DNA from: Candidatus Moraniibacteriota bacterium
GTDB taxonomy: Bacteria; Patescibacteriota; Minisyncoccia; Moranbacterales; UBA2206
Length of the DNA: 64,000 bases
Assembly: GCA_963775955.1 (NCBI GenBank)
Contig: CAVZKT010000001.1
Location: 85,437 to 149,436, forward strand
Direction: 5' to 3'
Shown: positions 8,241 through 61,041 of the stretch, piece by piece
Position numbering within the stretch: position 1 is the first letter of the stretch
How the letters are laid out: each line of letters begins with the position of its first letter
Notes under the pieces: generated by a model
Told to the model about the DNA's origin: nothing
The model's database searches: none
What the model saw: the letters and a program-made list of their open reading frames with translations, nothing else
Translations under genes and position numbers: made by a program

Positions 8241-8348
8241 AATTTTAAATTTTTAATTTCAGATTTTAAAACAATTTCCAATTACTAAATTTTCAAAATT
8301 CTTAAAAGTCGGGTTGATAAACTTTATGTTTTAGGCTAGGATTAATTC

Positions 8349-9019
8349 ATGGATACAGGCATATTATACATCGTCGCCACGCCCATTGGCAATCTGGGAG
8401 ATATTACCTTGCGGGCGCTGGAAACTCTCAAAAAAGCCGATTTGATCGCCTGTGAGGACACGCGGGTGGCTAGAAAGCTACTTGATCGTTATGAAGTCAA
8501 AACTCCGGTCACAAGCTTCTTCCAGCACTCAAAAACGCCTAAAATAGCCAGTATTATTGGGGCTTTAAAAAGCGGACAGAATGTAGCGCTGGTAACGGAC
8601 GCCGGCACGCCGGGCATATCCGACCCGGGAAACAGGCTGGTGGAACAGGCCGTCCTGGAAAATATCGCCGTGATTCCGATTCCGGGTTCCTCGGCGCTGA
8701 CTGCGCTCATCAGCGTGGCCGGAATTGATATGCAGAAGTTTATATTTCTCGGATTTCCTCCGCACAAAAAAGGCAGAGAAACTTTTTTTAAAGAAGTGAT
8801 CGCGCAAAATTATCCGGTCGTGTATTATGAATCTCCGCATCGCGTTCTCAAAAATCTGGAACTTTTGGAAATCTGGGAGCGGGAAAAAATATAATCCTCG
8901 GCCGGGAACTGACAAAAATGTTTGAAGAGACTGTCCGGGGAAATACGGAGGAAGTTTTAAAATATTTTCAAGATAATCCTAGAAAAGTAAAAGGAGAATT
9001 TACGATTATTGTTTATTAA
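8349..9019 (+). CDS. rsmI: 16S rRNA (cytidine1402-2'-O)-methyltransferase, frame change near 8885
   Basis: GILYIVATPIGNLGDITLRALETLKKADLIACEDTR. The C-terminus (GRELTKMFEE...GEFTIIVY) continues in another frame to TAA 9017-9019. Confidence 0.88.
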
Positions 9020-9024
9020 ATTTT

Positions 9025-10437
9025 ATGAAAAATAATTTTATATCACAACCCCAATCTATTATGCCAATGCTAAACCGCATATCGGGCACGCCTACACGAC
9101 CATTGCGGCGGATGTTTTGGCGCGGTTTCACAAACTGCAAAATGAAGAAGTTTTCTTCTTGACCGGCATGGATGAGCACGGAGCTAAAATTCAAAAAGCG
9201 GCCGAAGCGCAAGGCAAAGATCCGCAAAAATTTGTGGACGAGATCGGAGAAGAATTCAAAGATCTCTGGGAAAAGCTTAATATAAAATACGATAATTTTA
9301 TTTGTACCACCAATTCAAAGCACAAGGAGGCGGTGCAAAAAGTTTTGCAAACTCTTTATGACAAGGGCGCGATTTATAAAGGCGAATATAAAGGATTGTA
9401 TTGTGTGGGATGCGAGCAGTTCAAAAATGAAAATGAGCTGGTTGAGGGTAAATGCCCGGATCACAATACTGTTCCAGAAAAAACACGGGAAGAGTGTTAT
9501 CTTTTGAAACTGACTGAAATACAGCCAAAATTGATTGAAAAAATTGAAAAGAACGAATTTGAGATTGCCCCGGAAAGATACAAGAATGAAATACTCTCTT
9601 TTCTTAAAAGCCAGGAACTCAAAGATATTTCTGTTTCCAGGAAGAATGTTGAAATGGGGAGTGCCGCTTCCATTTGACTCGGAGCATACAACCTATGTTT
9701 GGGTGGACGCGTTTTTAAATTATCTCACCGGACTTGGCTGGGATGGCGATATGAATAATATTCCAAAACAATGGCCGGCCGATGTGCAGTTAATCGGCAA
9801 AGATATTTTGCGTGTTCATGCGACTATTTGGCCGGCGATTCTTTTGCATTTAGGGATTGGCCTCCCCAAAATACTTTTTACTCACGGGCATATTCTTTCC
9901 GGCGGGAAAAAAATGAGCAAAACTTTAGGCAATGTGATTAGTATTGATGAAATGCTGGAAAAATTCGGGACGGATGGGACGCGCTATCTTTTGCTTAGCG
10001 CCGGAACATTTGGAGACGATGTGAATGTGACAATGGAAAGAATGATTGAGAAATATAATGCTGATTTGGCGAATGGATTGGGAAATTTAATTTCGCGAGT
10101 TATAAAACTCGCTCAGAATTTCCAATTTCCAATTTCCAATTTCCAATCAATTTCCAATGACCAATTTTTAAATTTTATAAAAAATATAGAAATTGATAAA
10201 GCATTGGATTACGTATGGAATATTATTCAGGCTGATAATAAATACATTGAAGAAAATAAACCATGGGAACTTGTGAAAACCGATAAGAAAAAATTTGAGG
10301 AAGTAATGCGAAAGTTAATTATGGATTTACTTAATATTGCCGATTTAGTATTGCCTTTCATGCCTGAAACTTCGGAGAAAATCAAGAAAGCGCTAGAAAC
10401 CAAAAAAGTTGAACCGCTTTTTCAAAGAATAAAATAA
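9025..10437 (+). CDS. metG: Methionine--tRNA ligase (short form), frame changes near 9035 and 9535-9677
   Basis: ITTPIYYANAKPHIGHAYTTIAAD (HIGH) is readable just after ATG 9025 in a shifted frame. Also FLTGMDEHG, a Zn knuckle CVGCEQF...CPDH, and KMSKTLGN (KMSKS). Confidence 0.88.
10117..10170. repeat. Tandem heptamer array (AATTTCC x4 plus degenerate copies) inside metG
   Basis: Read directly. Translated as NFQFPISNFQSISNDQ. The same word array is in leuS at 19572-19637. Confidence 0.9.
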
Positions 10438-15353: not shown

Positions 15354-16312
15354 ATGGCCAGCTCAAAAGACATCAGACGTCGCATAAAGTCTATCAATAA
15401 CACCAAAAAAATAACCCGCGCGATGGAGATGGTTTCGGCTGCCAAAATGAGAAAAGCAGTAGCTTCGGTTTTCGCTATCCGCGCTTATGCGCATAGCGCC
15501 TGGAGCGTGCTCACGAACTTGGCGCGCGCGTTTGCGGAATATAATGTTGGGCTTTTGGAAAAGCGGCCGGTAAAAGCGGTGCTTATAGTAGTCGTTACTT
15601 CCAATAAAGGACTATGCGGATCATTCAATTCCAAATATCCAAAAAAATTATTGAGCAAATAAAAAATCCGGAGAGATTAAAGCTTAACAGGATAAATAAC
15701 AAAAATATTGAATCACCGGTATCTGATAAGGACTTGGTTATCGATTTTATTACTGTCGGCAAAAAAGGCGAAGCGGTGGTGAGGAAAATGGAAAAAAAGA
15801 TTGTTGCCAGTTTTCCGGAACTTACTTATCTTCCCGGGGTTGAAAGCGTGGGAGTTTTGGCGAAAATTGTGATGAATGAATATCTGGCGAAAAAATATGA
15901 CAAAGTGGTGATAATTTATACCGACTATATTTCCACTATTACCCAGCAGACGAAAGTGAGGCAACTTTTGCCAGTTTCCAAAATTGATCTGGAAAAACAA
16001 ATCGCCGAAATGGACAATATGGCCAAGGAATACGGACTCGCGCAGCCGAAAGTGGAATATAAAATTGAACCGAGTCCGGAAATTGTGCTTACCCATATTT
16101 TGCCGAGGCTTCTGGAGATGCAGATTTATCACGCGATTCTGGAATCAAACGCGTCCAAGGAATCGGCGCGCATGATGGCAATGCGCAATGCCACCGACGC
16201 GGCCGGGGAAATGTCAGACGAATTAACATTTGTTTACAACCAATTGCGGCAAATGAAGATCACGCAGGAAATCGCGGAGATTTCAGCAGGCAGAGCAGCG
16301 TTGGAAAATTAA
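15354..16312 (+). CDS. atpG: F0F1 ATP synthase subunit gamma, frame change within 15614-15662
   Basis: KKITRAMEMVSAAKMRKA at the N-terminus and ITQEIAEISAGRAAL at the C-terminus, in two overlapping ORFs. Confidence 0.9.
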
Positions 16313-16342: not shown

Positions 16343-17756
<1,414 letters not shown>

Positions 17757-17757
17757 A

Positions 17758-18200
17758 ATGAAAATTAACTTTAAAATTGTTACTCCCGAGAAAACAGTTT
17801 TTGAATCTGAAATTGATCAGGCGACTTTACCCGTGGCCGACGGGGAAGTGACAATTTTGCCCAATCACCGGTCATATATAGCGGCGCTGAAAGCCGGGGA
17901 AATAATGCTGAAAATCGGCAAAGAAGAAATTATCTGGCGATTTCCGGAGGCTTTATTGAATTTAATAAAAATAATCTGGTGGTTTTGGCGGATACGGCGG
18001 AAAGGGCGGAAGAAATTGATTTGAAACGCGCGGAAGAAGCCAAAGCGAGAGCCGAAAAGGTGATGAAAGAAAGGGTCAGAATGGACGATTCTGAATACGC
18101 ACGCGTGGCCGCGGCGATTGAAAAAGAAATGGCGCGGCTTCGGGTCGGTCGAAAACATAGAACAAGAGGGAGTATTAACCTTGGCAATTTTTCAGAATAA
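17758..18200 (+). CDS. atpC: F0F1 ATP synthase subunit epsilon, frame change near 17940-18000
   Basis: IVTPEKTVFESEIDQATLPVADGEVTILPNH plus the helical C-terminus AERAEEIDLKRAEEAKARAE in a second frame. Confidence 0.88.
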
Positions 18201-18877: not shown

Positions 18878-21328
18878 ATGGAAAAATACGATCCAAAGAA
18901 AATAGAACCGAAATGGCAGGAATTTTGGCTTAAAGAAGGCATTTATAAGGATTATGGAAAATCCAAGAAGTTCTACGCTTTGGATATGTTTCCCTATATT
19001 TCCGGCTCCGGCATCCATGTGGGGCATCCGAAGGGGTATATTGCCACTGACGTAGTGTCCCGCTTTAAAATACTCCAAGGATACAGCGTGCTTCATCCGA
19101 TGGGCTGGGACGCTTTCGGGCTGCCAGCGGAAAATTATGCCATTAAAAATAAAATAAATCCCAATATCTTTGTTAAGGAAAATATCATCAGGTTTAAAAA
19201 ACAATTGGAAATGTTCGGCTTTACCTATGATTGGGACAGGGAACTTAGCACTACCGACCCGGATTATTATAAATGGACGCAATGGATATTCCTGAAATTA
19301 TTTGAAAAAAGATTGGCGTATGAATCCAATGAGCCGGTTAATTGGTGTTCCAGCTGTAAAACCGTATTGGCCAACGAAGATTTAGAAGGAGGAAAATGCG
19401 AACGTTGCGGAACCCAAGTAGTCCAAAAGAAGATGAGGCAGTGGGTCCTAAAAATGACCGATTACGCCGACCGTTTGCTTTATGATTTGGATACGGAGGA
19501 TCTGGATTGGGAGGAGCAAATCCTTGAACAGCAGAGAAATTGGATCGGCCGATCAGAAGGAGCCTTGATAGAATTTCCAATTCCCAATTTCCAATTTCCA
19601 AATAAATCCCAAAATCTAAATTCCAAAAATCAAAACTATCTAGAGGTGTTTACCACAAGATTGGACACTATTTACGGCTGCACCTATTGCGTGATCGCGC
19701 CAGAGCACGAAATAATTGAAAAATTGAAAGATAAAATTGAAAATTATGAGGAAGTAAAAAAATATATTATTGCCGCGCAGAATAAAACGGAATTGGAAAG
19801 AATGGAAATGAAAGAAAAAAGCGGAGTAGAACTTAAGGGCATAAAAGTTACCAATCCTTTTAATAATAAAGAAATACCGTTATTCGTGGCGGATTATGTT
19901 TTGGCGCATTACGGCACCGGCGCAGTGATGGCAGTCCCGGCGCACGATGAAAGGGATTTTGAATTCGCCAAGAAGAATAATCTTAAGGTCAAAGAAGCTA
20001 TTAAAAGCGAAGACAGTAAATCTTCCATAGAAAAAGAAGCCTTTATCAATGATGGAGTTTTAGTAAATTCTGAAAAATATTCAGGCTTAACCTCTAAAAA
20101 AGCCCGCGAAAAAATGACCAAGTGGCTGGAAAAAGAAAAGGTCGGCAAGAAAAAAGTAAATTACAAAATGCGCGACTGGGTATTTTCAAGGCAAAGATAT
20201 TGGGGGGAGCCGATTCCCATAATCCACTGCGAAAAATGCGGAACGGTGGCGGTTCCGGAAAAAGAGCTGCCTCTGAAATTGCCGGAGGTCAAAAATTATG
20301 AGCCGACTGGAACGGGCGAAAGTCCGCTAGCCAACATAAAAGATTGGGTTAATACGGTTTGTCCCAAATGCGGCGATCCGGCTAAGCGTGAAACCAACAC
20401 TATGCCGCAATGGGCTGGATCTTCCTGGTATTATCTGCGCTACATCGATCCAAAAAATGACAAAGCTCTGGTTGATAAAGAAAAAGAAAAAAAATGGATG
20501 CCGGTGGATCTGTATGTAGGCGGAGCGGAACATGCCACGCGCCACTTGCTGTATGCCAGATTCTGGCACAAATTTCTCTACGATATTAAAGTGGTTTCCA
20601 CCAAGGAACCTTTTAAAAGATTAATTCATGTCGGTTTGGTTGATGGAGAAGACGGAAAAAAAATGAGCAAGCGCTGGGGGAATGTGATAAATCCTGACGA
20701 TGTGATAAATGAATTCGGAGCCGATTCGCTGCGCCTTTATGAAATGTTTATGGGACCTTTCAGCCAGAACATTGCCTGGAGCACGGATGGCGTAAAAGGA
20801 GTGAGAAGATTTTTAGAAAAAGTTTGGAAATTACATGAAAAAATTAACAAAAATAAATTAGATAATAAAAAAACAGAAGCACTTATCCATAAGACCATTA
20901 AAAAAGTCACGGAAGATATTGAAAATTTCCGGTTCAATACGGCCATCAGCCAGATGATGATATTAGTTAATGAAATGGAAAAAGAAAAAGAGTTACAAGT
21001 TGCAAGTTATGAGTTGCTAATTATTATTTTAAGTTCTTTTGCTCCGCATATTGCCGAAGAGCTTTGGAATAAATTAGGCCGCAAGGAATCAATATTCCTG
21101 CAAAAATGGCCGGAGTATGATCCGGAGATCATTAAAGACGAAAAAATAACTCTAGTGATTCAGGTCAATGGCAAGGTGCGCGATTCAATTGAAGCGGATG
21201 CCGGAATTTCCGAAGCCGAAGCGAAGGAACTGGCCATGCAAAGCGAGAAAATAAAAACCCGGACAGCAGGCAAGGAAATTAAAAAAATCATTTTTGTCAA
21301 AGGCAAATTAATAAATATTGTGCTGTAA
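18878..21328 (+). CDS. leuS: Leucine--tRNA ligase
   Basis: 816 aa, intact. HVGHPKGY (HIGH), KMSKRWGN (KMSKS), CP1 editing domain TTRLDT. Confidence 0.97.
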   Translation: MEKYDPKKIEPKWQEFWLKEGIYKDYGKSKKFYALDMFPYISGSGIHVGHPKGYIATDVVSRFKILQGYSVLHPMGWDAFGLPAENYAIKNKINPNIFVKENIIRFKKQLEMFGFTYDWDRELSTTDPDYYKWTQWIFLKLFEKRLAYESNEPVNWCSSCKTVLANEDLEGGKCERCGTQVVQKKMRQWVLKMTDYADRLLYDLDTEDLDWEEQILEQQRNWIGRSEGALIEFPIPNFQFPNKSQNLNSKNQNYLEVFTTRLDTIYGCTYCVIAPEHEIIEKLKDKIENYEEVKKYIIAAQNKTELERMEMKEKSGVELKGIKVTNPFNNKEIPLFVADYVLAHYGTGAVMAVPAHDERDFEFAKKNNLKVKEAIKSEDSKSSIEKEAFINDGVLVNSEKYSGLTSKKAREKMTKWLEKEKVGKKKVNYKMRDWVFSRQRYWGEPIPIIHCEKCGTVAVPEKELPLKLPEVKNYEPTGTGESPLANIKDWVNTVCPKCGDPAKRETNTMPQWAGSSWYYLRYIDPKNDKALVDKEKEKKWMPVDLYVGGAEHATRHLLYARFWHKFLYDIKVVSTKEPFKRLIHVGLVDGEDGKKMSKRWGNVINPDDVINEFGADSLRLYEMFMGPFSQNIAWSTDGVKGVRRFLEKVWKLHEKINKNKLDNKKTEALIHKTIKKVTEDIENFRFNTAISQMMILVNEMEKEKELQVASYELLIIILSSFAPHIAEELWNKLGRKESIFLQKWPEYDPEIIKDEKITLVIQVNGKVRDSIEADAGISEAEAKELAMQSEKIKTRTAGKEIKKIIFVKGKLINIVL
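19572..19637. repeat. AATTTCC/CCAAA word array inside leuS
   Basis: GAATTTCCAATTCCCAATTTCCAATTTCCAAATAAATCCCAAAATC... translated as FPIPNFQFPNKSQNLNSKNQ, between WIGRSEGA and the editing domain. Confidence 0.88.
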
Positions 21329-34428: not shown

Positions 34429-36656
34429 TTACTTTTCAAACTTACACTCTTTGTTTGAACATTTGATTTTGCCTTTGGCGGCGAAGACAAGAAGGGACTT
34501 GCATTGCGGGCAGATTTCGCCGTTAGGTTTGTTCCAGAGCGCGAAGTCGCATTTGGGATAAGTATTGCAGCCGTAAAACAGACGGCCGCGTTTGGATTTT
34601 CGCTCAACAATATCCCCAACATTGCATTTAGGGCAAGTAATGCCCGTTTTCTTTTCAATTTTTTTAATGCCTTTGCATTGGGGATAATTGGAACAGCCGA
34701 GAAAAGTTCCAAATTTGCCGCGCTTCACCGCCATCGGCGCGCCGCAAATTTCGCAAATTTCGCCCCTATGTTCTTCATCCACTTTTTTTTCCGCGTCTGT
34801 TTTTTCCGTATGCTTGCAATTCGGATAGTTGGAGCAGGCGATGAATTTTCCAAAGCGCCCGAACTTCATGATCAAATCCCCGCCGCAATCGGGGCAGGCG
34901 CGGTCAAGTTTTTCCTGAAAATCTTCCTTTTTCACTTCTTTGGTTTTGGCCTCCAGATTTTTTTGGAAGGGCTTGTAAAATTCGCGGATTACCGGAACCC
35001 ACTTTCTTTTGCCTTCGGCAATTTCGTCAAAATCCATTTCAATGGTGGCGGTGAATTTAATATCCACTATTTCCGGAAAATGAGCGACCAAAAGATCATT
35101 GACTAAGGCGCCGATTTCCAGGGGATATAATCTTTTTTCTTCATTTTTATCGACATATTTTCTTTCAATAATAGTGGAAATTGTCGGCGCGTAAGTTGAC
35201 GGCCGGCCGATGCCGTTTTCTTCCATAACTTTTACCAGGGTGGCCTCATTGTAGCGCGGAGGCGCGGCTGTTTCTTTTTGGGCGGCCAGGATTCCGACCA
35301 AATCCAGATTTTCGCCGATTTTCATTTTTGGCAAAAGATTTTCGCCGTTGGCTTTGCCGTCCGTAGACTTTTGAGATAACCGTCAAATTTAACAGTGGAT
35401 CCATTAGCCTGCAATAAATATTTGTTTTTACCAGTAGCATCCACTTCGAGTTTTACTGAATCGAAAATTGCCGGCTGCATCTGGGAAGCAAGCATCTTTT
35501 TCCAGATGAGGCTGTATAATTTATATTCGCTTGGATCAATTTTGGCTTTCAGGTCATCCGGAGTTTTGTCGGGATAGGCCGGACGGATGGCCTCATGTGC
35601 TTCCTGGGCGCCTTTAGATTTGGTTTTATAAAATTTCGGATCAGGGAGAGCGTAATTTTTTCCGAATAACCGCGCGATGGTTTTTTGCGCGGAAAGCATT
35701 GACTCTAAAGAAAGATTCAGGCTGTCGGTGCGCATATAGGTGATATATCCTTTTTCGTAAAGTTTCTGCGCCTTGCTCATGGTGAACTTGGCGGAAAATC
35801 CCAGATTGCTGATAGCCGCCTGCTGCAGGGAAGAAGTGGTGAAAGGAGGGGAGGGATAACGCAGAGTTTCTTTTTCAGTTATATTACTGACTTTGAATTT
35901 AGCGCGCTTAAGATCGGCCACAATTTCGTCAGCCTTTTTCTGGCTGTCGATTAAAGTCTTTTTAATTTTATAATCGCCGGCGAATAATTTTAAGATTGCG
36001 GCTTGTTCAATTTTCTCACCGTTTTTTTCCGTGAGATTGGCCGTAAAATCCTGCTTTGAGCTCTGAACTTTGAACTTTGAATTTATAGCGTAGTATTTTT
36101 CAGACTTGAATTTTTCGATTTCTCTTTCTCTTTCAACGATCAGGCGCAGAGCTACCGATTGCACGCGCCCGGCGGAAAGTCCGCGGCGGATTTTTTTCCA
36201 GAGGAACGGGGAAAGTTCAAAACCGACCAGACGGTCCAAAATTCTTCTGGCTTGCTGGGCGTCCACCAGATTAAGATCAATCGCGCGCGGATTGTCTAAT
36301 GCTTTTTCAATGGCGCTTTTGGTAATTTCGTGAAAAACAATGCGCTTTGCTTCTTTGGGATTTAAATCCAAGGCTGAAACCAAATGCCAGGAAATAGCTT
36401 CTCCTTCGCGGTCTTCGTCAGTGGCGAGAATCACGTCTTCAGATTTTTTGGCCAGTTCTTTGAGTTCCTCTACTCTCTCGGCGGATTTGGCCGGAATAAC
36501 ATATTCCGGCGCAAAGTTATTCTCAATATCAATGCCCATTTTTTTGGCGGGCAGATCGCGGATATGGCCGTAGGAAGATTTAACGGTAAAAGCCTTCCCT
36601 AAAAATTTGGAAATAGTTTTGGCTTTAGTGGGGGACTCAACTATAACTAGCTTCAT
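34429..36656 (-). CDS. topA: DNA topoisomerase I, frame change near 35322-35334
   Basis: KLVIVESPTKAKTI, TOPRIM DEDREGE, and four C-terminal Cys4 zinc ribbons. Start at MKLVIVES (36656); an alternative is 36677. Confidence 0.92.
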
Positions 36657-36728
36657 GGAGCATGGAACATGGAACATGGAACAATTTTTCTTTAAATTGT
36701 TTTATGTTCTATGTTATGTGTTATGTGA
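36654..36728. repeat. Hairpin built from CATGGAA words (left) and GTTCTATG/GTTATGTG words (right)
   Basis: CATGGAGCATGGAACATGGAACATGGAAC ... GTTCTATGTTATGTGTTATGTG. It overlaps the topA start and the dprA stop. Confidence 0.75.
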
Positions 36729-39188: not shown

Positions 39189-39776
39189 TTAATTCGTATT
39201 TAGAATTAATTTTGGCAGCTCGTTTTCAATTATTTGCAAAAGTGCGGGGTAAATTTTTTCAGATTCATCTTCGGTAAATTTATCTAATACATAATCTTGT
39301 GCGCCCAACCTGCATTTTTTAGAGTCCTCGATAGAATCCTCTTTAGAGGCCTCTACTCCGATGCCGATGCGGATGCGTTTGAATTTTTGCGTGCCTAAGT
39401 TTTCAATAATATTCTCAACTCCGTGATGACCGGCGGAAGAGGAATCGGTCGCGATTTTATATTTTTCAACAGCAATGTCCAGATCGTCGTGGATGACGAT
39501 AATATCATCAGCCGTTAATTTATAAAAATCCAAAATATTTTTTACAGTGGTGCCGGAGAGATTCATATATGTTGCTGGCTTAATCAAGAGAAGTTTGTAG
39601 TTTGTAGTTTGTAGTTTGTAGTTTCCTTCGGATATTTTAGAATTAAATTTTTTATTGTATGCAAATGGAGGAAAATCCCAAAGCTCGCGCAACTTATCCG
39701 TAAAGAAAAAGCCGACATTGTGGCGGGTGTTTTCATATTCTTTGCCGGGATTACCTAAACCAAAAATTATTTTCAT
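39189..39776 (-). CDS. pth: Peptidyl-tRNA hydrolase
   Basis: MKIIFGLGNPGKEYENTRHNVGF, YMNLSG, HDDLD. Confidence 0.93.
   Translation of the reverse strand: MKIIFGLGNPGKEYENTRHNVGFFFTDKLRELWDFPPFAYNKKFNSKISEGNYKLQTTNYKLLLIKPATYMNLSGTTVKNILDFYKLTADDIIVIHDDLDIAVEKYKIATDSSSAGHHGVENIIENLGTQKFKRIRIGIGVEASKEDSIEDSKKCRLGAQDYVLDKFTEDESEKIYPALLQIIENELPKLILNTN
39592..39626. repeat. Tandem heptamer AGTTTGT x4.7 inside pth
   Basis: Read directly. Translated on the minus strand as NYKLQTTNYKL. Confidence 0.9.
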
Positions 39777-41411: not shown

Positions 41412-42035
41412 ATGGATTTTGAACCAAAAAAGAACACAAAAGAAGAGCAATACTATGGCATTGGCGGTTTTATTTTGGAAATAATCAAAGTTTTTGTTTT
41501 GGCGCTGGTCATTATTTTACCAATCAGGGTTTTTTTGTTTCAGCCTTTTTTTGTGCAGGGCGCTTCCATGGAGCCGAATTTTGAAGACAGCCAATATCTC
41601 ATCATCAATGAACTTGGCTATAAACAAACCGCGGTGGATATAAGTAATTTTCATTTGTTTACTGTAAGTCCTTTTCGGGAACTGGAAAGGCAAGAAGTCG
41701 CAGTTTTTCGCTATCCGAAAAATCGCAGCCAATTTTTCATTAAAAGAATAATCGGCCTGCCGGGAGAAAAGGTGCAAATAAAAGAAGGAGTAGTGACTAT
41801 ATTTAACAAAGAAAATGCAGATGGTTTTCTTCTGGATGAAAGCGCCTATCTTTCTTCCAAAGTGAAAACTCAGGGAGAGATGGCGCTTGCCCTCAAGGAT
41901 GATGAATATTTCGTCATGGGAGATAACCGCGGCGCCAGTTCAGATTCCCGCTCCTGGGGTCCGGTAAAGGAAAATAATATTATTGGAAAAGTATTATTGC
42001 GGGCGTGGCCGCTTGATCAGCTATCGCTGTATTAA
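41412..42035 (+). CDS. lepB: Signal peptidase I
   Basis: GASMEPNF (Ser box), RIIGLPGE, GDNRGASSDSR. Confidence 0.92.
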   Translation: MDFEPKKNTKEEQYYGIGGFILEIIKVFVLALVIILPIRVFLFQPFFVQGASMEPNFEDSQYLIINELGYKQTAVDISNFHLFTVSPFRELERQEVAVFRYPKNRSQFFIKRIIGLPGEKVQIKEGVVTIFNKENADGFLLDESAYLSSKVKTQGEMALALKDDEYFVMGDNRGASSDSRSWGPVKENNIIGKVLLRAWPLDQLSLY

Positions 42036-42160
42036 ATCCAAAATCCAAAATCTCAAATTCCAAATAAATAATAAATTCAAAAACCAAAATACAAAACTCT
42101 CTATATTTTAAAAATTATAATTTTAAATTTGTTTGTGATTTGTAATTTTGTATTTGTAAT
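42036..42160. repeat. Word-hairpin element (CCAAAAT words / ATTTGTAATTTTG words) abutting hisS
   Basis: Shares a ~60-nt core (AAATTATAATTTTRAATTT...GATTTGTAATTTTGWATTTGTAATTT) with 60205-60336. Confidence 0.8.
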
Positions 42161-42169
42161 TTAAGCAGT

Positions 42170-43576
42170 ATGGCAAAGAAAAAAATTAAGCTAAAGAGAA
42201 AGGTTAAAATTAAATTCAAATCAGTAAAAAAGCTGAAACTTAAAAAAAGCGGAGAAACTATTGAAACGATTATTTTGCAGCCGCCACGGGGCATGAAAGA
42301 TATTTTGCCGGAAGAACAGCCCTATTGGGATCAAGTCAGAAGAACGACAGAAAGACTGGCGCGCGAATACGGTTTTTCCCGGATTGACGTTCCGGTGGTT
42401 GAGTATGCCAATCTTTTCAATCGCAGTATCGGGGAAGGAACTGATATAGTCAGCAAGGAAATGTATGCCTTTGTCACTAAGGGCGGGGATAAGGTAGCGT
42501 TGCGCCCCGAATTTACAGCCGGCATTGCTCGCGCCTACATCCAGCATGGAATGAGCGTTTGGCCGAAGCCGATCAAGCTTTTTTCCACAGGATCAGCCTA
42601 TCGCTATAATCGCCCGCAAGAAGGCAGATACCGGGAATTTTTTCAGGTTAATTATGATATTTTGGGGGAGCAAGATCCGATTTTGGACGCGCAGATAATC
42701 CAGGTGGCGCATCGCGTCGTCCAAAGTCTAGGCATTAAGTCGGTGCAAATCCAAGTCAACTCAATCGGCTGTCCCGGTTGCCGCAAGGAATATAAAGAAT
42801 TGCTGGTGAATTATCTGGAATCGAAAAAACAAAAACTTTGCCAGGATTGCAAAAATCGCCTGGAAAAAAATCCGCTACGAGTTTTGGATTGCAAAGAGGA
42901 TAAGTGCGCGCAAGTGGCGGCCACGGCGCCGCAATCCATTGATCATCTTTGCGATGAATGCCGGGTGCATTTCAAACATGTTTTGGAGTATCTGGATGAG
43001 TTGGAATTGAACTATGTTATCAACCCGCAAATGGTGCGCGGACTGGATTATTATACCAAGACGGTTTTTGAAGTCTGGTCGGGTTCGGAAGAAGGCAGAA
43101 AGAGCTCCTTGGGTGGAGGCGGAAGATATGACGGGCTCGTGAAAATGCTGGGAGGAGAACTGACGCCGGCCATTGGTTTTGGTTTTGGCGTGGAAAGGCT
43201 GATTTTGGAAATGAAGCGGGTGCAGGCCAAGCCGTACCGCATGCCGCGGCCCAAAGTCTTTTTGGCGCAGCTGGGGGAATTGGCCAAGAAAAAAAGTCTG
43301 AAGCTTTTTTCCGAATTGGAAAAAAATGGAATTCTCACCGCTGAAAGTTTCGGGCGCGGAAGCCTGAAATCGCAGCTGCGCGAGGCGGACAGGCTGGGCG
43401 TGGAAATAACTTTGATTCTGGGCCAGAAAGAAGCGCTGGACAAAACTGTAATAATAAAAAATATGACATCGGGCGTGCAGGAAATTGTGAGTGTGGATAA
43501 GTTGGTTGATTTGGTGAAAAGAAAACTTAAGGCGGACAATGTGGTCGTATACCACGAAAATTCGCATAACACATAA
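42170..43576 (+). CDS. hisS: Histidine--tRNA ligase with Lys-rich N-terminal extension
   Basis: GMKDILPEE, ALRPEFT, RYDGL, and an anticodon-binding C-terminus. About 35 extra K-rich residues at the N-terminus. Confidence 0.93.
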   Translation: MAKKKIKLKRKVKIKFKSVKKLKLKKSGETIETIILQPPRGMKDILPEEQPYWDQVRRTTERLAREYGFSRIDVPVVEYANLFNRSIGEGTDIVSKEMYAFVTKGGDKVALRPEFTAGIARAYIQHGMSVWPKPIKLFSTGSAYRYNRPQEGRYREFFQVNYDILGEQDPILDAQIIQVAHRVVQSLGIKSVQIQVNSIGCPGCRKEYKELLVNYLESKKQKLCQDCKNRLEKNPLRVLDCKEDKCAQVAATAPQSIDHLCDECRVHFKHVLEYLDELELNYVINPQMVRGLDYYTKTVFEVWSGSEEGRKSSLGGGGRYDGLVKMLGGELTPAIGFGFGVERLILEMKRVQAKPYRMPRPKVFLAQLGELAKKKSLKLFSELEKNGILTAESFGRGSLKSQLREADRLGVEITLILGQKEALDKTVIIKNMTSGVQEIVSVDKLVDLVKRKLKADNVVVYHENSHNT

Positions 43577-43854: not shown

Positions 43855-43934
43855 CATATAACATACAACATGAAACATGTAACAAAAACTACTAATTAGA
43901 AAATTGTTACATGCTATATGCTTCATGCTTCATG
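43855..43934. repeat. Hairpin built from ACATG/CATGA words
   Basis: CATATAACATACAACATGAAACATGTAACAA ... TTGTTACATGCTATATGCTTCATGCTTCATG. The right arm runs into the next ORF's start. Confidence 0.75.
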
Positions 43935-44390
43935 AGTATTTCTTTAAAACAAAAAATATTTTCCGATCTAAAAGAAGCGATGAAGGCGGGGGACGCGTTG
44001 AAGCGCGATACTCTGCGGATGCTGGATGCAATGATAAAAAACACGGAAATAGAAAAAATGAAAAAGGAAGATGGGCTGACTGACGCGGAAACTGTTGAAG
44101 TTTTGTCGCGCGCGGTAAAGCAGAGGCGCGACAGCGTAGAGCAATTTGAAAAAGGCGGCCGGCAGGATTTAGCCGAAAAAGAAAAAAAAGAAATAGAAAT
44201 CATTTCCGCCTATCTTCCGGAACAACTGGGCGAGGATAAAATCAGGGAAATTATCAAAGAAGTTATCACGGCCGCCGGAGCCAGCTCCAAAGCTGACATC
44301 GGAAAAGTTATGGGGCAGGCGATGGGCAAATTAAAAGGCCAGGCGGACGGGAACATGGTGAAAAAAATTGCGGAAGAAGAATTGCCGTAA
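43932..44390 (+). CDS. yqeY: GatB/YqeY domain protein
   Basis: LKEAMKAGDALKRDTLRML and GKVMGQAMGKLKGQADG motifs. Confidence 0.88.
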   Translation: MSISLKQKIFSDLKEAMKAGDALKRDTLRMLDAMIKNTEIEKMKKEDGLTDAETVEVLSRAVKQRRDSVEQFEKGGRQDLAEKEKKEIEIISAYLPEQLGEDKIREIIKEVITAAGASSKADIGKVMGQAMGKLKGQADGNMVKKIAEEELP

Positions 44391-53225: not shown

Positions 53226-53318
53226 ACATAACTCGTAACTCATAACGCATATTTATTAAAATAACCTTGAGAAATCAGGGTTATTTTTTTAGTGTCGAGT
53301 TATGGGTTACGAGAGTTG
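53226..53318. repeat. Word hairpin (CATAACTCGTAACTCATAAC / GTTATGGGTTACGAG) enclosing the ftsZ terminator
   Basis: The inner AATAACCTTGA-GAAA-TCAGGGTTATT hairpin plus T7 (53260-53290) is a rho-independent terminator. Confidence 0.75.
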
Positions 53319-57966: not shown

Positions 57967-60138
57967 ATGGTAGGTAAATACAAAAATAAAATTACTAAAG
58001 TCATCAAAAGAAGCGGGAACGTCGTGGAGCTTGATCCGGAAAAAATTACCAAAGCGGTAATAAAAGCGTTTGCAGCCACCGGCGAAGGCAGTAAGGCGGA
58101 CGCCCAAAAAGTCAGCGACAAAGTCGTCCAGCTTCTCAATAAAAATTACAAAAAAGGCTATATTCCGGAAATTGAAGAAATCCAGGATTTAGTGGAAAGA
58201 GTGCTGATGATTTTGGATTTTGAGGAAACAGCCAAGGCCTACATTCTTTATCGCGAACAGCACCGGAAAATCCGCGAAACCGAAGAAACCTTGAAAGAGG
58301 CGGTGGATTTGGTGGATAAATATATCCAGGAAATTGACTGGAAAGTGAAAGAAAATGCCAATATGGCCTATTCCCTCCAGGGACTTAATAATTATATTTC
58401 TTCCATTGTCAGTTCCAAATATTGGATGAACAAGGTTTACACCAAAGAAATCCGCGAAGCGCACGAAAGCGGAGATTTTCATATCCATGATCTGCAGCTG
58501 GTGGCGGCTTATTGCTGCGGCTGGGATTTGCAGGATCTTATCCGCCGGGGTTTTACGGGAGTTCCCGGAAAAGTTGCCTGCAAGCCGGCCAAACATTTTG
58601 GTTCAATTTTGGGGCAGATGGTGAATTTTATCTATACTCTTCAGGGGGAAGTGGCCGGCGCGCAAGCTTTTTCCAATTTTGACACCTTGCTGGCTCCGTT
58701 TGTCCGTTATGATAAATTGACTTATGAAAAAGTAAAACAGGAGATCCAGTCTTTTGTTTTTAATATGAATGTTTCCACGCGCGTCGGATTTCAAACGCCC
58801 TTTTCCAATATCACCATGGACATCAACGCGCCCAAGACCCTGGCCAAGGAAACAGTGATAATCGGCGGAGTTCCGCAAAAAGAAACCTACGGAGAATTTC
58901 AGGAAGAAATGAATATGATCAATCGCGCTTTTGCCGAAGTGATGACCGAAGGCGATGCCAGCGGGCGAATTTTTACTTTTCCGATTCCGACTTATAACAT
59001 CGGAAAAGATTTTGACTGGAATGACGAAAAATTCAATCCGATTTGGGAAATGACGGCCAAATATGGCATTCCCTATTTTGCCAATTTCATAAATTCCGAT
59101 ATGGATCCGGATGACGCGCGTTCCATGTGTTGCCGGCTGCGGCTGGATAATCGCGAACTGCACAAGCGCGGCGGCGGACTTTTTGGCGCGAATCCTCTGA
59201 CCGGATCGGTCGGCGTGGTTACGATAAATATGCCGCGCCTGGGCTATCTGCCAAAAGCAAAAAAGATTTTTTTGCGCAGCTTAGACAAGCTGATGGATCT
59301 GGCCAAAGAAAGTTTGGAAACCAAAAGAAAAATAATGGAAACATTGACGGAAAAAGGATTATATCCATATTCCAAATTTTATCTGGATGCCATCAAGATG
59401 CGCCGGGGCGAATATTGGGCCAATCATTTTTCAACTATCGGCCTGGTCGGCATGAATGAAGCGCTGTTGAATTTGATTGGAAAAGATATAACTTCAAAAG
59501 CCGGGCAAAAATTGGCGGAGGAAATTTTATCGCATATGCGCGACAGGATAATCAAGTATCAGGAAGAAACCGGCAATATGTATAATTTGGAAGCCACGCC
59601 GGCCGAAGGAACATCCTACCGCCTGGCGCGCAAAGACCGGCTGCGATTTCCGGAAATGATTTTTGCCAACGATGAAGCGGTCAAGCATAAGGGGGCGGAA
59701 CCGTATTATACCAATTCCTCGCAGCTGCCGGTGCATTTTACGGAAGATATTTTTGAAGCGCTGGATCTGCAGGAGGATTTGCAGACAAAATATACCGGCG
59801 GGACGGTTTTGCATGGATTTCTGGGAGAGCGGATTTGGGACATTGAAACCACAAAAAAATTGGTCAGAAAAATCGCCGAAAGCTATACGTTGCCGTATTT
59901 CACGCTGACTCCGACTTTCAGCATCTGTCCGGTGCACGGCTATATCGCCGGCGAACATTACACTTGCCCGAAATGCGTAGTGGAACAAAAAACTGAAGTT
60001 TACTCCCGCGTAGTCGGCTATATCCGGCCGGTTGAACAATGGAACAGGGGCAAGCAGGCCGAATTCAACGACCGCAAAGAGTATGTGGTAAAGCAAAAAC
60101 GAAAAGCCGGACAGAAACAAAAACAGCTGGCGTTGTAA
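57967..60138 (+). CDS. nrdD: Anaerobic ribonucleoside-triphosphate reductase (class III)
   Basis: 723 aa. N-terminal ATP-cone, C-terminal Zn site CPVHG...CPKC, and the glycyl-radical motif SRVVGYIRP. Confidence 0.95.
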   Translation: MVGKYKNKITKVIKRSGNVVELDPEKITKAVIKAFAATGEGSKADAQKVSDKVVQLLNKNYKKGYIPEIEEIQDLVERVLMILDFEETAKAYILYREQHRKIRETEETLKEAVDLVDKYIQEIDWKVKENANMAYSLQGLNNYISSIVSSKYWMNKVYTKEIREAHESGDFHIHDLQLVAAYCCGWDLQDLIRRGFTGVPGKVACKPAKHFGSILGQMVNFIYTLQGEVAGAQAFSNFDTLLAPFVRYDKLTYEKVKQEIQSFVFNMNVSTRVGFQTPFSNITMDINAPKTLAKETVIIGGVPQKETYGEFQEEMNMINRAFAEVMTEGDASGRIFTFPIPTYNIGKDFDWNDEKFNPIWEMTAKYGIPYFANFINSDMDPDDARSMCCRLRLDNRELHKRGGGLFGANPLTGSVGVVTINMPRLGYLPKAKKIFLRSLDKLMDLAKESLETKRKIMETLTEKGLYPYSKFYLDAIKMRRGEYWANHFSTIGLVGMNEALLNLIGKDITSKAGQKLAEEILSHMRDRIIKYQEETGNMYNLEATPAEGTSYRLARKDRLRFPEMIFANDEAVKHKGAEPYYTNSSQLPVHFTEDIFEALDLQEDLQTKYTGGTVLHGFLGERIWDIETTKKLVRKIAESYTLPYFTLTPTFSICPVHGYIAGEHYTCPKCVVEQKTEVYSRVVGYIRPVEQWNRGKQAEFNDRKEYVVKQKRKAGQKQKQLAL

Positions 60139-60204
60139 GGTTTAGGAAAAAACAAAGAGATAAAGGGGCGGCTTTGGTTTTTAAATCAGGTCGCCCTTAA
60201 TTTA

Positions 60205-60336
60205 AAAAATCCAAAATTCGAAATCACAAATTCCAAACAAATTACAATGTTCAAAAAACAAAACCCAAAACATTTTGAATTTTGAAAATTATAATTTTGA
60301 ATTTATTTAGGATTTGTAATTTTGAATTTGTAATTT
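60205..60336. repeat. Word-hairpin element abutting the nrdG start (same family as 42036-42160)
   Basis: AATCCAAAATTCGAAATCACAAATTCCAAAC ... GATTTGTAATTTTGAATTTGTAATTTT. The shared core contains ATTATAAT. Confidence 0.8.
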
Positions 60337-60337
60337 T

Positions 60338-61041
60338 ATGGTGTTGGGCGGTTACCAAAAACTTACCCTCATTGATTATCCCGGAAAAATTGCCACCACG
60401 GTTTTTACGGTTGGCTGCAGTTTTCGCTGTCCGTTTTGCCATAATCCGGAATTAGTTAAACATGGAACATGGAACATGGAACAAAGAACAACGATGGAAA
60501 AAGAGTTTTTTGAGTTTTTGAAAAAAAGCAAAGGCAAGCTGGAAGGCGTGTGCATTACTGGAGGCGAGCCGGCGATCCAGCCTGATTTGGAAGAATTTAT
60601 CAAAAAAATAAAAAAGCTGGGTTTTTTGGTAAAGCTGGATACTAATGGCAGCCGGCCGGATGTGCTCAAGAAACTTATGGATAAAAAACTTCTGGATTTT
60701 GTGGCAATGGACATAAAAAGCAGCTCGAAAAATTATATTAAAACGACAGGATTAAAAGTGGATATCAAAAGGATAAAATTAAGCGTTAATTTGATAATGA
60801 AACAGCAAACTGCCGTATGAATTTCAGAACTACGGTTGTGCCCGGCATCCACACGGAAAAAGATTTTGAGGAAATCGCCAAATGGATCAAAGGCGCCAAG
60901 ACTTATTATCTCCAGGAATACCGCGAAATTAAAATTCTGGATCCCAAGCTTAAGAAAAAAACCAAAGGCAAAACCATTGATCTGGAAAAAATTAAGAAAA
61001 AAATCGAGAAAAATTTCGGGAAGATGGGAATCAGGAGGTAA
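60338..61041 (+). CDS. nrdG: Anaerobic RNR activating enzyme (radical SAM), 2 frame changes near 60800-60825
   Basis: CSFRCPFCHN cluster, ITGGEP. YEFRTTVVPG is readable only after removing one A (AAA run) and one base in ATTTCAG. Confidence 0.88.
60461..60482. repeat. CATGGAA x3 array inside nrdG
   Basis: The 22-mer CATGGAACATGGAACATGGAAC is identical to 36663-36684. Translated as HGTWNMEQ. Confidence 0.9.

Follow-up and report, generated by a model that had tools for sequence, protein, structure and literature searches.

The STRR1-3 repeats of heterocystous cyanobacteria (units CCCCAGT, TTGGTCA and CAACAGT) are tandem heptamer arrays occurring as a dispersed family, in which, as Elhai et al. 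are said to have described in 2008, small dispersed repeats are nested. Heptanucleotide units are also the commonest class of long simple-sequence repeats (LSSRs) in prokaryotes, as far as the survey concerned is quoted in a later paper (Mrazek, Guo & Shah 2007, via PMC4679880), which itself reports TAACTGA heptamers in marine Beggiatoaceae, cyanobacteria and Bacteroidetes (MacGregor 2015, PMC4679880). The Rickettsia palindromic elements (RPEs) are miniature inverted-repeat transposable element (MITE)-like palindromes of about 150 bp that reside in frame in metabolic and housekeeping genes (PMC10969869). The elements presented here join the heptamer-array build of LSSRs, TAACTGA repeats and STRRs with an RPE-like, in-frame residence in housekeeping genes. 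They were studied in a 64,000-nt stretch (hereafter the window) of a Candidatus Moraniibacteriota genome (GCA_963775955.1, contig CAVZKT010000001.1, positions 85,437 to 149,436), where AATTTCC units are repeated inside metG and leuS, the genes of methionyl-tRNA synthetase (MetRS) and leucyl-tRNA synthetase (LeuRS). On balance, both arrays are probably in-frame copies of a dispersed, G-poor family of heptamer-array elements of about 45-70 nt in the Candidate Phyla Radiation (CPR)/Patescibacteria, copied as blocks and carried as passengers, and they do not look like private microsatellites born of slippage.

In metG, a perfect AATTTCC run of 4.4 copies is read in the gene's own frame as NFQFPISNFQSISNDQ, in agreement with an earlier note on this DNA, which had described four perfect translated units. 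Tandem Repeats Finder extends the period of 7 over 10117-10167 (unit AATTTCC, 7.7 copies), with degenerate units after 10147. The array lies in a loop of the anticodon-binding domain, between GNLISR and KPWEL, and the full composite element (Table 1) was matched by a profile whose source copies all came from other metagenomes (nhmmer E 2e-16, 64 profile positions); the word TGACCAA occurs once in its tail. The RNA over the array is unstructured (-0.5 kcal/mol, z +1.7). MetRS itself is not lengthened by the array, which occupies a variable loop of ordinary length: the loop has 53 aa, that of most relatives 47-58 aa, and the alignment with A. aeolicus MetRS (2csx) shows no net insertion. The public annotation of metG covers just a 262-aa C-terminal piece (P0121). 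The frame is broken near 9036-9043, at a T run, and near 9648-9652, at an A run, both away from the array. Single-base frame breaks at homopolymers, relative to close relatives, were also seen in atpG (about 15635-15660), atpD (about 16675-16710 and 17420-17500) and atpC (about 17934-17937). We rejected the possibility of metG being a pseudogene because these three genes are broken likewise, and all these breaks look like indels of an error-prone assembly, which may derive from long reads, and not like biology.

The leuS array, which the earlier note had rightly called near-identical, has a period of 7, 4.3 copies, 91% matches and a single mismatch (AATTCCC), is translated in frame as FPIPNFQFPNKSQNLNSKNQ and continues into an A/C-rich tail up to 19642. 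A profile made without the copies of the window matched it with an E-value of 2e-5. The 71-nt G-free run of the whole element exceeds the longest one found in 200 shuffles (65), and the element is unstructured as RNA (z 0.2). Here the enzyme is indeed longer, as the earlier note had put it (about 13 residues over the E. coli spacing): T. thermophilus LeuRS (1h3n), when aligned, lacks 13 residues at the hairpin preceding TTRPDT, and the WIGRSxG..TTRxDT spacing is 30 aa in the LeuRS of the window, compared with 17 aa in 81 of 118 relatives. The element amounts to a net insertion of 13 codons at the tip of a beta-hairpin leading into the CP1 editing domain. As modelled by AlphaFold (mean pLDDT, the predicted local distance difference test, of 82), the insertion of this LeuRS forms a coil between strands 225-234 and 254-259, and residues 242-251 fall below a pLDDT of 50, i.e., the inserted tip is predicted to be disordered. 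Since 7 is not a multiple of 3, a slip of one unit would shift the frame of either gene, as the earlier note correctly stated, and a stop would follow about 10-15 codons downstream of the array. The best named relatives of both enzymes are all Moranbacteria (Parcubacteria/CPR).

An exact scan of one genome per GTDB species revealed at least 120 stretches carrying three or more AATTTCC units. Among the matches listed, most belong to CPR classes of all sorts, some are found in unrelated bacteria, even of 60-69% G+C, where inverted pairs form intergenic hairpins, and one in a filamentous cyanobacterium (L066). Among these matches there are 122 arrays, 56 of which lie in long open reading frames (ORFs) in sense, 14 in antisense and 44 between genes. 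The host ORFs belong to bona fide Pfam families in 18 of the 20 sense and all 10 antisense cases tested, including MnmA, UvrD, PolA-exo, MetRS, LeuRS (at two sites), IleRS, DprA, Mur ligases, RluD, PGM, Fmt, KsgA, SecA, GT4, GT2, TsaD, HypF and TopA, and every array copy found within a long ORF is in frame and free of stops. The second of the LeuRS sites (WYYLAYIMRG-ISNFQFPIS-KYK) is occupied in uncultured relatives of the cultivable Saccharibacteria. Perfect arrays of at least three copies numbered 191 for period 7 (63 of them unseeded) vs. 0-11 for periods 5, 6 and 8-12, in 960 kb of loci mostly selected for bearing an AATTTCC array; in the window itself, perfect arrays with 2.5 or more copies number seven for period 7, and periods 8-12 have none.

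What makes the family recognisable is its composite structure, three to four AATTTCC units followed by a characteristic irregular tail. The 20-mer TTCCAATCAATTTCCAATGA, which covers the end of the array, a unit that has lost 3 nt (4 nt left) and a variant unit, was present in 42 metagenome contigs in 34 distinct contexts, about 20 of which have a full upstream array and a similar downstream tail. Among these contexts are intergenic hairpins as well as genes for a MetRS orthologue, GT4 glycosyltransferases, GatB and a GlyRS-like protein, and the same 20-mer is found in an insertion of the 23S rRNA in a GTDB contig (L106). The tail pattern, consisting of a truncated unit, one unit, GAYMAA and further similar sequence, is common to unrelated genes, rRNA and spacers, and arrays of other genes (L090, L114, L118, L111) are followed by the leuS tail AAATAAATCCCAAAATC as well. 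Copies are thus distributed over spacers (often as inverted pairs forming hairpins), an rRNA gene and many unrelated housekeeping genes, where they sit in variable loops or hairpin tips. The AATTTCC unit is free of stops in all six frames and, 7 and 3 being coprime, encodes one cyclic heptapeptide in every frame. The composite has a single TGA-bearing frame, which is never used in coding copies, and this argues from sequence that the element is translated. Coding copies favour AATTTCC in the mRNA by about 5:1 (59 sense vs. 12 antisense); because no such preference is seen in intergenic copies, whose orientation to the adjacent genes is the same in 18 cases, opposite in 15 and mixed in 14, this bias is a filter on coding copies and not strand-specific insertion. 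Insertion of the IS200/IS605-like, strand-specific kind was therefore left unsupported, and translational bypass of the element is unnecessary, all coding copies being open and avoiding the frame with the stop.

Comparison of orthologues does not support the private and unstable arrays that the earlier note implied. The metG element stands at the same junction in several Moranbacteria whose MetRS are only 57-67% identical, and the unit number is equal (4.3) in the window, L001 and L162, the orthologues that retain the AATTTCC unit. All 10 array codons are identical to those of L001, compared with 49% identity at conserved residues elsewhere in the gene (P ~8e-4), in a test conditional on amino-acid identity and the sole comparison free of ascertainment inflation. 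Over 45 nt, the metG element shows 80-98% nucleotide identity to five orthologues, while the flanks show 63-68%. The unit has changed in two lineages, to AATTTTC in L004 (three of the four units) and likewise in L005, and to AATTTNG in L003, while L004 and L003 retain the tail AATCAATTTCYAATGAY; the variation tracks the 7-nt unit and not the codon. A scan of metagenomes with the window's own metG flanks and a variable gap returned no contig. Regarding leuS, the array is established at the same hairpin in other CPR genomes (L077, L090 and L108), and in the distant relative L090 the element is identical at 54 of 60 positions, with flanks of 60% nucleotide identity. The nearest relatives (80-81% identity) either lack the insertion (L128) or carry AAATCCC arrays (L007), so the distribution of the element is discordant with the host phylogeny. 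In L077 and L108 four AATTTCC units lie within an unlengthened 17-aa hairpin, which is an overwrite and not an insertion. Orthologous copies are more alike in DNA than the flanking gene in the comparisons made, and with the peptide conserved outside the lineage, a finding that the earlier note itself had set against its proposal, the idea of a private insertion fails.

Like the STRRs, the AATTTCC arrays form a dispersed family of tandem heptamers, and nested palindromes occur here too (CCTTGCCTACCGGCAGGCAGG, in L168 and L169). Their unit and taxa are different (AATTTCC, in Moranbacteria and the CPR), and the STRRs are reportedly intergenic and not known to reside in frame in housekeeping genes, whereas both copies in question are translated within synthetase genes, though related copies in the window are intergenic. 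The likeness to LSSRs consists of head-to-tail 7-nt arrays, far commoner than those of neighbouring periods, with tandem copies beyond chance in both metG (4.4) and leuS (4.3); slippage-type purity is plausibly common to both. A local and independent origin of each array is at odds with the shared tails and the distribution in leuS. Unlike LSSRs, the copies share irregular tails across unrelated loci and genomes, outconserve their host genes in the comparisons made and lie in frame in essential genes, whereas in the LSSR survey, as quoted in PMC4679880, it was the units with a length divisible by three that most often fell into coding regions. With the TAACTGA repeats the family has in common the occurrence of one heptamer over distant phyla with no evident vector, mostly as short arrays, of which some adjoin start codons and a few lie inside ORFs. 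TAACTGA, however, differs in host range, has stops in all three forward frames and is found mainly in intergenic regions or at ORF ends, while AATTTCC is open in six frames and is found in the middle of conserved enzymes. Finally, the RPEs are the classic selfish repeats residing in frame, a dispersed family of short repeats met time and again in unrelated housekeeping ORFs, with a conserved passenger peptide at fold-compatible positions; conserved sequence at unrelated loci and in-frame, fold-compatible housekeeping residence were both found for AATTTCC. A palindrome of about 100-150 bp was not, as the coding copies are unstructured direct heptamer arrays of 45-70 nt without hairpin potential, hairpin formation being confined to intergenic relatives (z -2.9 to -7.5).

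MetRS and LeuRS are essential aminoacyl-tRNA synthetases, and because an essential single-copy gene cannot grow an array in steps of 7 nt, we infer that the copies arrived as blocks. They would have been acquired, or overwritten onto a loop, ready-made and with a net length change that is a multiple of three. The likely route would be templated copying from an ectopic site, with a template switch or gene conversion where AATTT-type microhomology exists, or else transposition of some sort. Selection would then retain only open-frame copies in permissive surface loops. The purity of the arrays could be maintained through concerted evolution, either by conversion or by in-frame slippage of 21 nt, and the lineage-wide changes of the unit may reflect the same process. 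The NFQFPIS-type peptide would be a tolerated passenger rather than a functional module, a disordered extension of a beta-hairpin in LeuRS and a loop filler in MetRS; variants arising by slippage of a single unit would be null alleles and be purged, the arrays not serving as switches, and the element as such would be selfish or neutral repeat DNA. Several points weigh against this explanation. We know of no gene associated with the elements, and inspection by eye of the junctions of coding copies against insert-free relatives showed neither terminal inverted repeats nor target-site duplications. Copies within the window are not especially similar to each other, which leaves intragenomic conversion unsupported. 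Low-complexity, A/T-rich sequence is prone to convergence, and in viral contigs AATTTCC arrays gave 11 matches, two heptamers of matched composition 9 and 11. In the nearest relative, L128, the unlengthened 17-aa leuS hairpin retains a degenerate period-7 trace, as would fit local growth from a proto-array. Some comparison loci were found by exact words or picked by peptide likeness, so that part of the identity contrast is inflated, and the exact copy numbers of the window, given its many single-base indel errors, rest on corroboration by other assemblies.

That trace in L128 is among the data that ordinary local microsatellites would explain, each array having grown in situ by slippage from a chance heptamer and the likeness between loci being convergence from A/T-rich codon composition. 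Both the window and related loci have an excess of period-7 arrays, built from many different units, the perfect units lie at the 5' and the decayed ones at the 3' end of the array, AATTTCC is no commoner than control heptamers in viral contigs, and for heptanucleotides, as the most abundant LSSR class, polymerase slippage has been proposed, at least in the portion of the survey quoted later (Mrazek 2007 via PMC4679880). We nevertheless find such an origin unlikely, as one irregular tail recurs in unrelated genes, rRNA and spacers, the leuS element is common to a distant lineage while the nearest ones lack it, a hairpin can be overwritten by a four-unit array at unchanged length, and the frame of an essential single-copy gene would have to survive every fixed step, which should exclude growth unit by unit. 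Slippage also underlies the proposal that the arrays are contingency loci, in which gain or loss of one unit toggles the synthetases off and on. Here there is a coding tract whose unit is not a multiple of three, with premature stops after a one-unit slip in either direction, and heptanucleotide tracts do drive switching in some pathogens (e.g., HMW1A and NeuO). Phase variation would however be expected in a dispensable host with ON and OFF length alleles, and the hosts are MetRS and LeuRS, both essential by established knowledge and with one copy each in the 64-kb window; all long-ORF copies are in frame and stop-free, the unit number stays constant in the window, L001 and L162, and the frame of metG breaks at homopolymers away from the array, with atpG, atpD and atpC broken too. 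We consider phase variation highly improbable.

Two further explanations invoke selection, at the level either of the nucleic acid or of the protein. A G-free, unstructured and C-punctuated repeat could be kept as a binding target in RNA or DNA, for which an S1/Csp-type or Rho-type RNA binder or a nucleoid protein would be candidates. It would account for an element that outconserves its host gene down to synonymous sites, for the lack of structure in the RNA of coding copies and their long G-free runs, and for AATTTCC in very different phyla including G+C-rich genomes; moreover, other heptamer arrays of the window adjoin start codons and so do the TAACTGA repeats of Beggiatoaceae (PMC4679880). 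On the other hand, intergenic copies have no preferred orientation relative to genes, the unit drifts by lineage (AATTTTC, AATTTNG), one protein site can hold a different unit from genome to genome, no Rfam family matches, and neither a promoter nor a terminator was called at the hairpins by the scans. With no known binding factor either, a nucleic-acid function seems to us unlikely. An adaptive insertion, i.e., selection of the alternating hydrophobic/polar NFQFPIS-type peptide at the CP1 hairpin of LeuRS or the anticodon-domain loop of MetRS, for instance as an interaction surface, fits the recurrence of the peptide at the same sites in several lineages, the strong sense bias of coding copies and the fact that L003 keeps the hydrophobic positions though unit positions 6-7 vary. 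It is improbable in view of a codon conservation exceeding what amino-acid identity requires, the presence of the same DNA in unrelated proteins, rRNA and non-coding DNA, the predicted disorder of the inserted LeuRS tip and the quite different peptides that other relatives hold at these sites.

If the metG and leuS arrays are block-copied passengers, CPR genomes, streamlined as they are, not only tolerate but also conserve 7-nt repeat elements of selfish appearance within the frames of their most essential enzymes. The elements would then be natural maps of insertion-tolerant loops in aminoacyl-tRNA synthetases, SecA, MnmA and other enzymes, and a source of lineage-specific variation in protein length able to mislead annotation and phylogeny. 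Short shared repeats could, in principle, also affect the assembly and binning of metagenomes. The puzzle lies in DNA that outconserves its host gene, pointing to a copying or correction mechanism or to a function at the RNA or DNA level. Tentatively, and with more doubt than confidence, we raise the possibility that CPR/Patescibacteria harbor previously undescribed, tiny heptamer-array elements that actively copy themselves, or are copy-corrected, into the loops of essential genes, rRNA and spacers and outconserve their hosts across deep lineages. Such elements would imply either a dedicated machinery for templated insertion or conversion or a nucleic-acid function, such as a binding platform for hundreds of transcripts or loci, and either of these would be a new kind of genome-wide feature in the CPR. 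In the literature searched, we found no description of heptamer-array elements of this build for the CPR, no paper pairing heptanucleotide or simple-sequence repeats with CPR/Patescibacteria and none containing NFQFPIS, AATTTCCAATTTCC or related strings. When a 41-aa NFQFPIS/SISNDQ consensus was searched for, 10 short hypothetical proteins were all that matched, the word index being poor with a low-complexity query.

Table 1. Heptamer arrays, composite elements, hairpins and host genes in the 64,000-nt window.
Feature	Position	Strand	Remarks
Perfect (AATTTCC)x4.4 array in metG	10117..10147	+	Translation NFQFPISNFQ
Full composite metG element	10117..10180	+	Array, truncated unit CAAT, TTCCAAT, GACCAAT, A/T tail
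metG (MetRS)	9025..10437	+	Host gene; two single-base frame changes in the assembly
(AATTTCC)x4.3 array in leuS, one mismatch (AATTCCC)	19572..19601	+	Peptide (E)FPIPNFQFP
Whole leuS element, array and tail AAATAAATCCCAAAATCTAAATTCCAAAAATCAAAAC	19572..19642	+	71-nt G-free run
leuS (LeuRS, 816 aa)	18878..21328	+	Host gene
Degenerate intergenic copy of the composite element	8242..8312	+	nhmmer E 6e-4, profile positions 2-72; upstream of the gene starting at 8349
Intergenic hairpin with heptamer-array arms	42032..42164	.	RNA fold z -4.4
Second intergenic hairpin of like build	60195..60341	.	RNA fold z -2.9
Hairpin with outer arms of CATAACT/AGTTATG heptamer arrays	53232..53313	.	-40 kcal/mol, z -7.5
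In-frame (ACAAACT)x4.7 array in pth (peptidyl-tRNA hydrolase, by sequence inspection)	39592..39624	-	Peptide GNYKLQTTNYKL
In-frame (TTCAAAG)-type array in topA-like ORF (by sequence inspection)	36054..36081	-	Peptide NSKFKVQSSK
(TTCCATG)x4 array, adjoining and overlapping the likely topA start codon	36654..36683	-	..CCATG AAG CTA GTT = MKLV
(CATGCTT)x3.6 array, adjoining and overlapping the likely start codon of ORF 43911-44390	43910..43934	+	
In-frame (AACATGG)x3.6 array in radical-SAM activase-like ORF (by sequence inspection)	60459..60483	+	Directly after CPFCHNPEL

The intergenic hairpins that the earlier note had pointed out are real and built from related heptamer words, but their supposed link to the coding arrays through the complementary words GGAAATT and TTTGG is wrong, as neither word occurs in 42036-42160 or 60205-60336. 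The hairpin at 42032-42164 has arms of 46 nt with 74% complementarity; its left arm is A/C-rich (AAATCCA, AAATTCC) and lies inside a 101-nt G-free run, its right arm is T/G-rich (TTTGTAA), and the next start codon follows 6 nt past the end of the right arm. The one at 60195-60341 has arms of 37 nt with 73% complementarity, and its right arm adjoins the ATG at 60338. In both, the words AAATCCA/AAATTCC of the left arm are same-strand relatives of the leuS tail, and TTTGTAA/TTTGAAT are the words of the right arm. A near-palindrome AAAATTATAATTTT, which contains TATAAT, is situated at or near the center of both hairpins (42108-42127 and 60282-60301). Consensus scans of 41800-42400 and 60000-60500 for promoters and terminators called nothing, including at the TATAAT-bearing AAAATTATAATTTT, and Rfam at the gathering threshold found one tRNA only in the whole window and no family matching the elements. 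In the hairpin at 53232-53313, an inner hairpin followed by a T run looks, by eye, like an intrinsic terminator.

Concerning the remaining arrays of the window, those at 36654-36683 and 43910-43934 provide ATGs in all three frames just upstream of the likely starts and recall the start-codon-proximal TAACTGA repeats of Beggiatoaceae. At the protein site where the window has its AACATGG array (60459-60483), another Moraniibacteriota genome (L064) has four AATTTCC units; different heptamer units are thus established at one and the same loop.

The LeuRS hairpin of relatives bears at least four other, unrelated kinds of repeat-derived insertion and is a general hot spot for insertions. Among these are the types VIASEAKQSR..APRND, VILNGAERSEESR and GGSTSIMEVEPP, seen in P0012, P0014, P0016, P0035, P0038, P0040, P0082, P0090 and others, which look like translated palindromic repeats. 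Many Moranbacteria also have a larger LeuRS (about 930-1000 aa) with a NUDIX domain (PF00293), which the 816-aa LeuRS of the window lacks. It is located after the residue equivalent to about 378-386 of the window's enzyme and lies mid-enzyme in L007 (10001-12928) and L128 (10001-12850), where the DNA was read. A class I synthetase, IleRS by motif inspection, of a Paceibacteria metagenome-assembled genome (L031, 3366-7073, minus strand) carries an AATTTCC array near the start of CP1 as well as an inserted histidine-phosphatase domain (PF00300).

In L106, what reads as the 5' part of a 23S rRNA gene is interrupted by a heptamer-array hairpin of the composite type; some of the known rRNA insertions of the CPR may have arisen in this way. 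Lastly, in the metagenome contigs L168 and L169 the G+C-rich palindrome CCTTGCCTACCGGCAGGCAGG, translated as PTLPTGRQV, is nested in an AATTTCC array within an ORF; this repeat-in-repeat is identical in the two orthologues, whose flanks are 67% identical, and the peptides are also present in P0128 and P0061.

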